Sequence record: OR352946.1
DNA length: 64,000 nt
Origin: Escherichia phage AV116
Strand: one strand, 5' to 3'
Below are positions 38,674 through 42,178 of the stretch, in pieces. The notes below the pieces were generated by a model. That model was not told the DNA's origin, did not search any database, and saw nothing but the letters and a program-made list of their open reading frames with translations. The translations under genes and the position numbers were made by a program. Each line of letters starts with the position of its first letter. Within the stretch, counting starts at the first letter, position 1.

Positions 38674-39300
38674 TTATTTACGGGTTTTTGCATACTGAGC
38701 AGCGTCAGCAGCCAAACGACCTGCCTGACGAAGTTTTTCTTTAATCTCATCGTGAAGTGGTTGAGTGTACTTCAAACCTTCAATAGTCAAATAAAGACGA
38801 TAAAGGTCTGGGGTATCAAGGTTGTTGATATGTTGGCCATTACGAAGACTGTTGAATTCACGAACGAGTGAAGATGTATCGGATTCAATATCACGAACAA
38901 GCGAAGATAGTTGTTTATATTTTTTTTCCAGGCTAGAAGTATCAAACTTAAGAGCAGGAGCTTTAGGAGTTGCTTTTACTTCCGGCTTAGGCTCAGGTTT
39001 TGCTACTGCTTTAGGGGTCGCAGGTTTAGGAGTGGTAGGAGCAGGTTTTACTTTAGGCGAACCAGATTTAGCAGAAACACCACCACTAACAATATCTTTG
39101 AATGCTTTAGAAGCTCTGTAATATTCTTTTTGGCTGGAAGTGTCGATACCGTACATGGCTTGAACGTTTTTGAAAAACTCTGTACTAGTTTTTGTACCAG
39201 AAATAGCATCGTAAGCAGCTTGCCACTTCTCTTTTGTCATACGTACACCGGCTTCGGTGATTACTTCCGTTTCGGCTAAAAATTCATTAAAAGTATACAT
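38674..39300 (-). CDS. internal protein-like basic protein with Pro/Lys/Thr-rich linker
   Basis: N-terminus MYTFNEFLAETEV resembles capsid-targeting sequence; PKVKPAPTTPKPATPKAVAKPEPKPEVKATPKAP low-complexity segment. Confidence 0.5.
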   Translation of the reverse strand: MYTFNEFLAETEVITEAGVRMTKEKWQAAYDAISGTKTSTEFFKNVQAMYGIDTSSQKEYYRASKAFKDIVSGGVSAKSGSPKVKPAPTTPKPATPKAVAKPEPKPEVKATPKAPALKFDTSSLEKKYKQLSSLVRDIESDTSSLVREFNSLRNGQHINNLDTPDLYRLYLTIEGLKYTQPLHDEIKEKLRQAGRLAADAAQYAKTRK

Positions 39301-39341
39301 TGATGGTCCTTAGAAAGTAGGTTTATTATTTACTATATTTA

Positions 39342-39373
39342 TACAAAAAAGCCCCAACCTTTCGGAAGGGGCT
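39342..39373 (-). terminator. rho-independent terminator-like hairpin
   Basis: AGCCCC..GGGGCT hairpin followed by UUUUUU on minus-strand RNA; same architecture as 24274..24303. Confidence 0.55.
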
Positions 39374-39383
39374 ATATACCTTG

Positions 39384-39680
39384 TCGGGGTTTCCACCTAC
39401 TAGATAAGTGTTTGTACGAAACGCCGGGATTCGAACCCGGTTATTAAGTAGTTGACGCTACTCAATATTTTTAAAAAGGCCATATCTCGACCGTATCCGA
39501 ACGTTCCGTCAAAAACGCTACTCGGCTTACGGCAAAGATATTTCCTCGAATCGATAATTCTGTGCGCCGTTTCTGCTGTGATGTAAGGGGATATTAACAA
39601 ATCGTAAAGATTTATTAAGACCAGTCCTTACTCAGGGAACATCAGTCCGACGACTTGCCGGTAGCGACCCGGCTTCTTGT
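39384..39680 (-). ncRNA. putative stable small RNA / tRNA-like region (positional analog of T4 RNA species 1/2)
   Basis: non-coding stretch next to tRNA-Arg containing canonical T-arm CCGGG-TTCGAAT-CCCGG (rc of 39427..39441) and GC hairpins; no complete cloverleaf could be folded by eye. Confidence 0.3.
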
Positions 39681-39681
39681 T

Positions 39682-39758
39682 TGGTCGAGGCAGAAGGATT
39701 CTAACCTTCAACCTACGGATTAGAAGTCCGTTGCTCTATACAATTGAGCTATGCCCCG
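39682..39758 (-). tRNA. tRNA-Arg (anticodon TCT)
   Basis: hand-folded cloverleaf: acceptor CGGGGCA/TGCCTCG, D-arm GCTC..GAGC, anticodon stem ACGGA/TCCGT with loop CTTCTAA, T-arm GAAGG/CCTTC, encoded CCA; 77 nt. Confidence 0.8.
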
Positions 39759-39761
39759 TAA

Positions 39762-40427
39762 TTAAAATTTCATTTTTCGACCTTTAAACCATCCTTCTGG
39801 AATTGGGTCAGTTTTCTTAATACGTTTAGAAACTTTTTCATCTAATGAATGAATCCACATCATACCAAATTGGGAATTCTTTTCGCCCTGTTGATGTTTA
39901 TTTCTGGCGTGAGATTCTTTCATTTTATTAATAGTTTCAAGAGTATGGGTCTTACCCAAGAAAGATTTAGTATTTAAAAATTTCTCTCTATACTTAGGAT
40001 TATCCCAAAGCTGTTTAAACCTTTCTGAACCCATTTTACGATATTTTTCTTTAAGGTCTGGGTCGTTCTCAAATCTGGTTTTAAAAGCAGCAGCCCCTTT
40101 TAAGGAAGCTTCTTTCTTTTTATCCAAATATTCTTTAGTGTTTAAATGGTCCCAACCACCTTCACCACCTAATTTCAAATTATAAACATCAGGGCGCTTT
40201 AAAAACTCTTCAGTCACAATATTCTTTTCTGACTCAAACATAGAGGTTTTATCGTCAAAGAACTCTAATATTTCTTTAGAGAAATTTTCTATACCATACT
40301 TGTCTTGGGCTCTTTTTAATAATTTACCAGAACCCATATATCCATCATCTAAATTTTCGGTAGAATGGGCGCCTATATAGATTTTATTATTAATTTTATT
40401 TGTTATTTTATAAGTGTAATGGAACAT
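39762..40427 (-). CDS. segB: GIY-YIG homing endonuclease SegB-like
   Basis: canonical N-terminal GIY-YIG (HYTYKITNKINNKIYIGAH...GYMGSG); embedded between two tRNA genes as T4 segB. Confidence 0.75.
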   Translation of the reverse strand: MFHYTYKITNKINNKIYIGAHSTENLDDGYMGSGKLLKRAQDKYGIENFSKEILEFFDDKTSMFESEKNIVTEEFLKRPDVYNLKLGGEGGWDHLNTKEYLDKKKEASLKGAAAFKTRFENDPDLKEKYRKMGSERFKQLWDNPKYREKFLNTKSFLGKTHTLETINKMKESHARNKHQQGEKNSQFGMMWIHSLDEKVSKRIKKTDPIPEGWFKGRKMKF

Positions 40428-40468
40428 AAATATCTCCTATTTCTAAGAGTATTTATGTTCCCAAAATA

Positions 40469-40540
40469 TGGCCCTGGCTGGTTTCGATCCAGCTACCTAT
40501 CAGTTATGAGCTGACAGCTCTCCCATTGAGCTACAGGGCC
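40469..40540 (-). tRNA. tRNA with CAT anticodon (Ile-lysidine type or Met)
   Basis: hand-folded: acceptor GGCCCTG/CAGGGCC, D-arm GCTC-AATGGGA-GAGC, anticodon loop CTCATAA, T-arm GCTGG-ATCGAAA-CCAGC; CCA not encoded. Confidence 0.8.
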
Positions 40541-40636
40541 TAAATAACTTTCTATTATGAAAGGCACTTGAGGGAGCACCTTTGGTAATAGAGGGTAGAT
40601 TAATAATAACACATAATTCTTAAAGCAAATTACGTT

Positions 40637-40927
40637 TTACCGTACCATATTAATGTAGTTATATTCAATGCAACGTAATTTCAAAGGGTTCTTGAAAATA
40701 TCATATTCAAGAGGGCCTTTTTCTGTTTCAATAAAGAAATCAAAGTTAACTGTGTTAAATTTAACGTCTTCACAGAGTAATTTAACTTGTGAAGATGAAC
40801 GGTCGATATAAACCTTTTCAACCTCAAAGATAGTCAGAATACCGTAGTCATTAACCAGTGCTTTAGCTGCACGTTGGTCGCTTTCATATCCGTTCTCAAT
40901 GGACGATACTTTAGCATAAAGAATCAT
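40637..40927 (-). CDS. hypothetical protein
   Basis: 96 aa ORF. Confidence 0.45.
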   Translation of the reverse strand: MILYAKVSSIENGYESDQRAAKALVNDYGILTIFEVEKVYIDRSSSQVKLLCEDVKFNTVNFDFFIETEKGPLEYDIFKNPLKLRCIEYNYINMVR

Positions 40928-41286
40928 GAATGTTCCACCATTTCAAAGGTATGAGCATCAACAATATGATACCAGTCAAAATTTTCTTCCGCGTTTTTAT
41001 AAATTTCGCGAAGAGCTTCAACAGTTTTTCCTGTAGCAACAAGATCGTCAATACCACCAAGAGGATAACAGTAATAACCAGCAAACAGAAGGAAATTAAT
41101 AGTTTCTGTAGGTTCTGGATGCAGAACACCGTTATCATCTACCACTTCAAAGAAAGTGTAAGAAGGAGTACAAGTTTTAATCCAAGCCCATGCTTGGGCT
41201 GCTGAATCAAATGGTCTGCGTATCAAACGACAATCAGGGTCTTTAGAAGGATTTGCGTCAAAATCTGCATATACATGATATTTCAT
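40924..41286 (-). CDS. hypothetical protein
   Basis: 120 aa ORF. Confidence 0.45.
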   Translation of the reverse strand: MKYHVYADFDANPSKDPDCRLIRRPFDSAAQAWAWIKTCTPSYTFFEVVDDNGVLHPEPTETINFLLFAGYYCYPLGGIDDLVATGKTVEALREIYKNAEENFDWYHIVDAHTFEMVEHS

Positions 41287-41472
41287 TTACTCACCTTTTG
41301 CAATTTTATCCATAACGATAGCGATTAAGCCGATTAGAAATGCTACTACCAATGAGATAGAATTTTCTGTTGTTGTCAGTAGTCCACAAATGAATCCTAC
41401 AAACATCGAAAAACTAAAAGCCATTGAAGCAATTACTACAGCAACATTACGAATCAGTTCAGCGCGTTTCAT
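41287..41472 (-). CDS. small membrane protein
   Basis: ATG at 41472 (MKRAELIRNV...), two hydrophobic segments. Confidence 0.4.
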   Translation of the reverse strand: MKRAELIRNVAVVIASMAFSFSMFVGFICGLLTTTENSISLVVAFLIGLIAIVMDKIAKGE

Positions 41473-41520
41473 TTTATTTCTCCATTTACTCATTTGTTTT
41501 GATAGGACTACTATAACATA

Positions 41521-41549
41521 TCCCTATAGGCTTGTATACCTTTATTTCA
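41521..41549 (-). promoter_or_regulatory. T4-type early promoter-like element in hairpin
   Basis: minus strand GTATAC-N17-TTATAG. Confidence 0.45.
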
Positions 41550-41805
41550 AATATATTGCGTATTTTTTATAGCCACCAGGCTCGTGTCGAAGACCTTTAT
41601 CATTCGCAAAACGTTGAATGTTATTGAACTGATTTTCATCAAGTTCGGATGTGTCAAATACGAAAAAGTTTCGTTTGTTACCAAGCGTGATATGCGGAGT
41701 TAAGTCAATATTATACAAATTAAGAATATCAGCAATAACCTGATTGACCGCTTTGTTAATTTTCACACCAGATGATTCTGAGATGAATTCGTTGAAAGTT
41801 TTCAT
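41542..41805 (-). CDS. internal protein-like (capsid-targeting sequence)
   Basis: ATG at 41805 gives MKTFNEFISES. Confidence 0.5.
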   Translation of the reverse strand: MKTFNEFISESSGVKINKAVNQVIADILNLYNIDLTPHITLGNKRNFFVFDTSELDENQFNNIQRFANDKGLRHEPGGYKKYAIYLK

Positions 41806-41838
41806 TTTAGGTTCCATTTGGTTGTTTTGATAGGACTA

Positions 41839-41866
41839 CTATAACATAGTCCTATCGTGTTGTAAA
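41839..41866 (-). promoter_or_regulatory. T4-type early promoter-like element in hairpin
   Basis: minus strand TTTACA-N16-TTATAG flanked by GATAGGACTA/TAGTCCTATC. Confidence 0.45.
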
Positions 41867-42178
41867 TTATTTTATGCCTTTAGAAGAAATGGTATTTTGG
41901 CGTTTAACCCCTGTTTGTGAAAAATCGTGGTTATCGATTTGGTCGACTCGCATAACACCAAATGCAGATTTAATTTTAGCCTTTGAACCTTTTTTGATAC
42001 TAATTATCATATAAGTATCATTTTTCTTATATTCGAAATTTGTTACTTCAACGCCTTGATTAGAAATTGACTTAATAATAGCATTAGCGTATTCATCATC
42101 TAACGGACCGGTGGTGTTAATAATAAAATTTTTATCGGCTTTAGTAGCTTCAGCGATAAACTCTTGATAAGTTTTCAT
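41867..42178 (-). CDS. ipI: internal protein I-like (capsid-targeting sequence)
   Basis: N-terminus MKTYQEFIAEA; adjacent to 57B as T4 ipI. Confidence 0.6.
   Translation of the reverse strand: MKTYQEFIAEATKADKNFIINTTGPLDDEYANAIIKSISNQGVEVTNFEYKKNDTYMIISIKKGSKAKIKSAFGVMRVDQIDNHDFSQTGVKRQNTISSKGIK

Follow-up and report, generated by a model that had tools for sequence, protein, structure and literature searches.

In a 64,000-nucleotide stretch of Escherichia phage AV116 (sequence record OR352946.1; this whole stretch is the window referred to below), the minus-strand open reading frame (ORF) 38674..39300 encodes a protein of 208 amino acids (aa), which, judging from its sequence, is probably an internal head protein directed to the capsid by a T4-type capsid targeting sequence (CTS) and then processed. 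A CTS of this type follows the pattern M-x-x-[FY]-x-[ED]-F-[ILV]-x-E. The 208-aa protein matches phrog_2280, a family with no function assigned, over its full length (E=2e-58), and this family appears to be a credible addition to the CTS-tagged internal proteins, among which it was not previously recognised. As for what the protein does, an anti-defence role is suggested by analogy as the most likely function, at a likelihood well short of even.

The significance of such a leader has been established in T4, where the first 10 residues of the internal protein (IP) IPIII suffice for packaging, including the packaging of foreign proteins, where mutagenesis of IPIII linked positions 4 and 7 to targeting and positions 8 and 10 to processing, and where the IP propeptides are 10-19 residues long (PMC9026906). 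Codons 1-16 of the 208-aa gene (39253..39300, minus strand) encode MYTFNEFLAE/TEVITE/A, which retains aromatic-4, F-7, L-8 and E-10, i.e., the positions probed in the IPIII mutagenesis, and contains two [LIV]-x-E motifs resembling gp21-type protease sites, LAE/T at residues 8-10 and ITE/A at residues 14-16, with the putative cuts after E10 and E16. Among the 17 family members compared, F or Y occupies position 4 throughout, with E or D at position 6, F or I at position 7 and, wherever present, L, I or V at position 8; position 10 is E in 15 members, one of the other two lacking that stretch and one having G with ITE three residues further on. Residues 1-10 are the best-conserved segment of these 17 proteins, with a mean pairwise identity of 53% vs. 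23-34% elsewhere. Every member that has the segment with residues 14-16 retains the second site, [ILV]-[TSNL]-E-[AS], E16 included, and this site parallels T4 IPI (MKTFKEF...STITE/A), the 19-residue propeptide of which ends in ITE/A. In EcS1 and CHI14, the two sites are merged into a canonical 10-residue MLKFKEFISE/A.

The codons of the CTS vary synonymously among the homologues (TTT/TTC, TAT/TAC, TTA/TTG/CTC, GAA/GAG), and therefore selection appears to act on the peptide and not only on the DNA. This bears on the alternative that the leader has no targeting function and is a recombination or translation-initiation cassette of hyperplastic-region genes, placed in front of an ordinary non-virion accessory protein. 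Leaders coding for a CTS are plausible recombination sites, as seen in Ip9 (another CTS protein of the window, described below) and RB69 ipI, which have just MEPKMKT..EFIS in common, and such genes are shuffled by cassettes of the PeSL (promoter-early stem-loop) type, i.e., mobile regulatory cassettes of the hyperplastic regions of T4-type phages (PMC2839356). However, the leader of the 208-aa family is conserved as a peptide, its codons changing synonymously, even in genera whose surrounding DNA cannot be aligned, and the conserved residues are exactly those required for targeting and cleavage, which makes this alternative very improbable.

The original prediction had flagged three targeting-sequence ORFs, at 38674..39300, 41542..41805 and 41867..42178, and had put the total in the window at six, and both statements were borne out. 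All six frames of the window were scanned with a strict regular expression, M..[FY].[ED]F[ILVM].E, and with a relaxed version of it. Exactly six CTS-tagged ORFs were returned by either version, all on the minus strand and all with the motif at the ORF start; the three flagged ORFs encode 208, 87 and 103 aa, respectively, and the remaining three lie at 30634-30915, 29895-30155 and 29529-29831. These matches are not due to chance, because 100 triplet shuffles of the window gave means of 0.0 strict matches (maximum 0) and 0.03 relaxed matches. The targeting determinants (aromatic 4, Phe 7) are present in all three flagged ORFs, and the site motif reads ISE in the 87-aa protein and IAE in the 103-aa protein. 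Grounds for doubt had been seen beforehand in an N-terminal similarity that would stop short of a protease site; instead, all three ORFs keep the CTS together with the site motif, and the CTS reading is supported in silico for each of them.

The 208-aa gene carries its own predicted expression signals. A late promoter motif of the T4 type, TATAAATA, is located at 39336..39343 (minus strand), 36-43 nt 5′ of the ATG, and a Shine-Dalgarno sequence, AAGGA, at 39307..39311 (minus strand), 7-11 nt 5′ of it. Just 5′ of the promoter, a terminator-like hairpin with a T-run (39345..39373, minus strand; −17.1 kcal/mol, z = −2.7), homologous to the hairpin that follows T4 rnaC, closes the tRNA/rnaD/rnaC unit. 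The late promoter was found in 12 of the 12 loci examined, about 35-55 nt 5′ of the start, six having TATAAATA and six the 7/8 variant xATAAATA. Only the 208-aa gene among the six CTS genes of the window has TATAAATA upstream, and the earlier remark that its product differs from the other five proved correct in length (twice theirs) and in its two domains as well as in its own late promoter. Late expression would fit a virion component, although the classic ip genes are expressed differently. In addition, any late-expressed protein that bears a CTS should end up in the head irrespective of its purpose, given the ability of the first 10 residues in T4 to package foreign proteins (PMC9026906).

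Homologues of the 208-aa protein were detected by tblastn in 143 phage records, and among the 60 listed every annotated record says hypothetical; likewise, all 14 named members of the 90% cluster of the protein are hypothetical or uncharacterized. Members span at least eight genera of Tevenvirinae, including Mosigvirus, Dhakavirus (JS98 orf135), Karamvirus (PG7), Kanagawavirus (CIP9), Marfavirus, Winklervirus (CHI14) and Tegunavirus (fHe-Yen9-01), with further members in some Klebsiella phages and in EcS1, and the hosts of these phages are Escherichia, Shigella, Enterobacter, Klebsiella, Serratia, Yersinia and Cronobacter. A profile search of 1.8 billion cluster representatives gave 14 matches only, all of them relatives of the same type bar one spurious repeat protein, and showed no bacterial or other non-phage context, while a scan of IMG/VR with the family alignment gave six loci only, mostly from known isolates. 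In the relatives, the tRNA cluster is invariably followed, after a few hundred bases, by the gene, and in many Tevenvirinae genera its slot is fixed, with the rnaC terminator on one side and the e-gene block on the other. T4 has only a 284-bp gap at this place (rnaC to e.8), and the gene is also missing from phiR1-RT and ValerieMcCarty03.

Whatever occupies the slot in mogra, RB69 (ORF149c), PG7, Marfa, CIP9 and JS98 (orf135) is headed by a CTS. The mogra allele (154 aa, MKSYAEFLTE) is strongly divergent despite the close relationship of the two phages, and the RB69 allele, ORF149c/148c, starts with MKTYAEFLTE and is apparently frameshifted. The latter consists of two overlapping ORFs (13429-13991 of the compared RB69 stretch), which reflect either a frameshift mutation (a pseudogene) or an error in the reference sequence. 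According to BLAST coordinates, the window protein has only its N-domain and linker in common with CIP9, P0023 and P0026, the C-domains of which are unrelated to it, whereas P0027 has only the window-type C-domain, behind a different N-domain, and Mogra_134 and P0025 have another combination of domains. These alignments show that the N- and C-domains exchange independently around a linker rich in Pro, Lys and Ala.

This variability counts against a second alternative, in which the protein is an assembly-only accessory of the prohead core (in the manner of gp67 and gp68, or of IPIII in its morphogenetic role) that is targeted by its CTS, cut several times, largely expelled and never injected. 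The late promoter is as in structural genes, the conserved internal triplets VRE and IKE match [LIV]-x-E, the C-domain is modelled as a coiled-coil-like helical bundle of a kind frequent in scaffolding proteins, and IPIII mutants have been reported to slow head assembly (PMC9026906). However, the gene is dispensable and polymorphic, as shown by its absence from the three phages named above, its frameshift in RB69 and its very different alleles in close relatives, and the shuffling of domains and fast divergence are atypical of core assembly parts, so that an assembly-only role is distinctly unlikely.

An AlphaFold2 (AF2) model was built from a 13-sequence alignment (mean pLDDT 72.7) and shows an ill-defined leader, an N-domain at residues 20-72, a disordered linker at residues 74-112 and a C-domain at residues 122-206. 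In the domain division adopted here, the N-terminal helical domain comprises residues 17-76 (39073..39252, minus strand), with predicted helices 23-31, 39-50 and 57-72 at pLDDT 82-89, and T22, W26, G51 and Y60 are invariant in it among homologues. It is followed by a low-complexity linker, residues 77-117 (38950..39072, minus strand), which is predicted to be disordered (pLDDT 32-36), and by a three-helix C-terminal domain, residues 118-208 (38677..38949, minus strand), with predicted helices 122-153, 164-177 and 180-206 at pLDDT 80-93. The linker, which differs in length and sequence between homologues, contains 11 Pro, 9 Lys and 8 Ala among its 41 residues and has a pI of 10.3. It had been described as a PKxKPAxT repeat, which could not be upheld, as Tandem Repeats Finder finds no DNA repeat in what is a low-complexity stretch.

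The protein is basic, as originally stated, with 34 K+R vs. 23 D+E and a mature pI of 9.6, and this led to the suggestion of a DNA-binding injected protein, for which no support was found: its basis is the basic pI and the Pro/Lys-rich linker only, with no match to a DNA-binding fold or family. In a fuller version of this idea, a packaged DNA-binding or DNA-condensing protein would neutralise or organise the head DNA through S/T-P-K-x motifs of the linker, resembling a histone H1 tail. The net charge of about +11 and the four S/T-P-K-x motifs of the linker are in line with it, as is the old assumption that the T4 IPs, being basic and abundant, interact with DNA (PMC9026906). However, the matches to histone H5 have E-values above 6, the S/T-P-K motifs are not kept in homologues, in which just the composition is conserved, and the nearest matches in linker composition are the spacers of TonB and PspC (weak matches to NCBIfam proline-rich regions, E=8e-4 and 3e-3, residues 54-122). 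Moreover, specific protein targets, namely the GmrSD enzymes, have been identified for all three T4 IPs in place of a DNA-structural role, and the swapping of flanking domains suits an arms race better than housekeeping DNA packing. A DNA-binding or DNA-condensing function is therefore unlikely.

Searches for homology gave no further direction. The 208-aa protein has no match in Pfam or among PDB sequences and low-complexity matches only in NCBIfam, and the fold matches for the C-domain are generic helical bundles only. The comparison with IPIII proposed in the original prediction was run, and homology to IPIII (Pfam PF26861) was rejected, as BLASTP aligns residues 1-26 only, Pfam gives no match, and hhalign of the 208-aa and IPIII family alignments covers columns 1-26 only, with a probability of 58%. 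Replacement of IPIII by the 208-aa family was likewise rejected, because both coexist in AnYang, ESCO47, FL31 and MY02. A K-[DE]-x-W motif lies about 10-15 residues past the CTS in both families, at residues 22-26 of the window protein (39223-39237) and at residues 20-24 of T4 IPIII, with T22 and W26 invariant in the 208-aa family and K21, E23 and W24 in the IPIII family. This is the sole similarity of the two families past the leader and could be an extended core-binding element or chance.

Several points weigh against an internal head protein with an anti-defence role. The 208-aa gene has a late promoter and not the early promoter with stem-loop of the canonical ip genes (T4 ipI, ipIII), although that layout is typical of ip genes without defining them, and its product is a two-domain protein, not compact like IPI*. 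Further inside the protein, the conserved [LIV]-x-E triplets V146-R-E148 and I186-K-E188 are possible extra cleavage sites and, if cleaved, would point to a core component that is degraded. None of the family, sequence and fold comparisons indicates any activity. The virion proteomes found (phiR1-RT, ValerieMcCarty03/04) belong to phages without the family and give no evidence that any member is packaged, processed or injected, and the papers on p000v contain no virion proteomics. For the anti-defence part, it also counts that ip4-ip10, when assayed against GmrSD variants, gave no reproducible inhibition (PMC12373910).

An injected internal head protein nevertheless remains the preferred reading, and its route can be outlined. 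The late promoter and ribosome-binding site of the gene, the conserved CTS and the modular domains are directly visible in the sequences, and the steps that follow are inferred. The protein would be synthesised late and bind the scaffolding core of the prohead via residues 1-10, after which a gp21-type prohead protease may trim it after Glu10 and/or Glu16. The resulting basic protein of about 21-22 kDa would stay in the head with the DNA and be injected along with the genome, and its two small helical domains, held on an extended Pro/Lys/Ala spacer, could cross the portal and the tail one after another. In the cell, by a weaker argument from analogy with T4 Ip1-Ip3, it might act as a counter-defence effector whose independently swapping N- and C-domains supply specificity. 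In T4, Ip1, Ip2 and Ip3 are injected inhibitors, each specific for a GmrSD type IV restriction enzyme of its own (PMC12373910). An arms-race effector is suggested, with modest confidence, as the most likely role because rapid divergence, presence/absence polymorphism and domain shuffling all fit it.

The interval from the rnaC terminator to the e-gene block may even be a third hypervariable 'ip' locus of Tevenvirinae, unrecognised so far, which encodes late two-domain injected effectors against defences other than the targets of Ip1-3; this is a real possibility, somewhat below an even chance. If so, modules that recombine around a Pro/Lys/Ala spacer would suit passage of the tail by successive domains. 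Interest in the internal proteins of T-even phages revived once Ip1-3 proved to be specific injected inhibitors of GmrSD (PMC12373910), so that identifying the injected proteins still to be found leads directly to new anti-defence functions, and recognition of the CTS turns a family of at least eight genera, annotated as hypothetical only, into a candidate for injection that can be tested. The family also points to a possible third ip locus that current annotation overlooks. The 208-aa protein may further serve as a natural example of a larger, two-domain CTS cargo, which has a bearing on the use of T4 heads in engineered protein delivery.

The other two flagged ORFs are already-known internal head proteins, and nothing in them is new: the original prediction was right about their tags, and GenBank as well as PHROGs already list the two as internal head proteins. 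The 103-aa protein at 41867..42178 (minus strand) is of the Ip7 type and adjoins 57B; its CTS, MKTYQEFIAE, is identical to that of T4 IPII and IPIII, it matches the profile phrog_2667 'internal head protein' over its full length (E=2e-38), and RB69 ORF156c is 97% identical to it. The 87-aa protein at 41542..41805 (minus strand), with the CTS MKTFNEFISE, is of the Ip9 type and matches phrog_7673 'internal head protein' over its full length (E=5e-49). Their names in the mogra GenBank record are 'internal head protein 7' and 'Ip9 putative internal head protein', respectively; their 90% clusters contain many proteins with the label internal head protein, and annotations in mogra, phage SF, p000v and RB69 back both family assignments. 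A comparison of Ip7 and Ip9 with PDB sequences gave no related solved structure. The 41867..42178 ORF had been assigned to the ipI position, which holds for synteny, as 57B is its neighbour just as for T4 ipI, but the protein is no IPI homologue; the mature IPI sequence (T4 and RB69 IPI compared) matches no CTS protein of the window beyond the leader.

Ip9 occupies the slot of ipI in RB69, with which only the leader noted above is common, and it is present in mogra and not in p000v, a pattern that fits a cassette exchange with one boundary within the CTS-coding leader. The start of Ip9 could lie at an upstream ATG at 41817 (MEPKMKTF...), yet the start at 41805 agrees with the mogra GenBank annotation. 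The long reading (leader at 41764-41817) and the start of RB69 ipI (MEPKMKTY...; 16696-16749 of the compared RB69 stretch) have four extra codons and the CTS in common and then diverge fully. From this, the recombination boundary of the ip cassette seems to fall within the leader, and the annotated start of RB69 ipI seems to be four codons too early.

Upstream of both genes, a predicted early sigma70-like promoter with a TG element overlaps a stem-loop. For Ip9, the promoter is TTTACA-17-TATAGT and the stem-loop has 11 bp (41829..41866, minus strand; −16.6 kcal/mol, z = −6.8), and for Ip7 the promoter is TTTACA-17-TACTAT (42211..42243, minus strand). T4 ipI has TTTACA-17-TACTAT with a stem-loop in the same layout as Ip7, and T4 ipIII shares this layout. 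Ip7 and Ip9 are ordinary representatives of the hypervariable ipI locus, apparently swapped as cassettes that are bounded by the early promoter with its stem-loop and by the CTS-coding leader. Two further ORFs in relatives may carry similar tags. In the trna.4-57B gap of the JS98 record, an unannotated 97-aa ORF (72260-72553, minus strand) with the CTS MKTYQEFIKE probably represents an ip gene of the ipI locus that escaped annotation, and phiR1-RT g134 (14421-14579 of the compared stretch), a 52-aa ORF between two tRNA genes that starts with MKTYIEFINE and is annotated as hypothetical, is a very short CTS-tagged candidate.

The surroundings identify the window as Mosigvirus, i.e., an RB69-like T-even phage of the Tevenvirinae: megablast of 38000-43000 matched 842 phage records, with Escherichia phages p000v, vB_EcoM_G2469 and mogra, all of that genus, at the top. 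The minus strand carries every gene between 36 and 45 kb, and from high to low coordinates the order, compared with T4, is gene 1 (dNMP kinase), 57A, 57B (42258-42713), Ip7, Ip9, the trna.4, trna.3 and trna.2 homologues, tRNA-Met, a SegB-like homing endonuclease, tRNA-Arg, rnaD, rnaC, the 208-aa gene and the e.x block (e.6 and e.5 homologues). Homologues of two small stable RNAs of T4, rnaC (39415-39554, minus strand; 98% identity) and rnaD (39562-39677, minus strand; 87% identity), were located by blastn against the T4 genes; an Rfam search, in which neither has a family, gives just the two tRNAs in this interval, and ARAGORN also misses both. No homologue of e.8, IPI or IPIII was found in the window by tblastn. 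The only tRNAs in the window are tRNA-Met (40469-40540) and tRNA-Arg (39682-39758), vs. eight in T4, and the GIY-YIG homing endonuclease between them (39762-40427, minus strand) is 83% identical to T4 SegB. In a 167-aa ORF at 38033-38536 (minus strand), the first 91 residues are 87% identical to RB69 ORF146c and the remainder differs. A perfect TATAAATA motif also lies inside the IPII-like ORF (29529-29831), about 20 codons past its start (29762-29769, minus strand), and might drive late transcription of the downstream sequence.

Four known systems can be set beside these genes. The proline-rich spacers of TonB and PspC and the S/T-P-K-K motifs of histone tails resemble the linker in composition; they differ in that these are low-complexity matches without homology, and a spacer or DNA-binding role drawn from them lacks support. 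In phrog_2280, to which the 208-aa protein belongs, neither a functional annotation nor the CTS reading is recorded. With the PeSL cassettes (Arbiol et al. 2010, PMC2839356), the resemblance is that Ip7, Ip9, T4 ipI and ipIII each stand behind a strong sigma70-like promoter with an overlapping stem-loop and that the presence of Ip9 varies among close relatives (present in mogra, absent from p000v); however, PeSLs were defined in RB49 and phi1, the resemblance in the window is one of architecture alone, and no PeSL lies on the 5′ side of the 208-aa gene.

The closest comparison is with the internal proteins of the T-even phages, which reportedly include T4 IPI, IPII and IPIII and a wider Ip4-Ip13 set (Repoila et al. 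1994 and Mullaney and Black 1996 are said to have described them). The 208-aa protein differs from the known Ips in having no sequence or profile similarity to them beyond residues 1-26, in its two domains joined by a disordered Pro/Lys/Ala linker and in its late promoter, and it differs from T4 in that its slot is empty there. What it has in common with them is the N-terminal CTS of 10-19 residues with aromatic-4, F-7 and [LI]-x-E, as well as a basic, non-essential and hypervariable character and a place in the plastic regions near the tRNA, e and ipI genes. In addition, it is comparable in size and charge to T4 IPIII (193 aa), and its extended propeptide ends, as that of T4 IPI does, in ITE/A.

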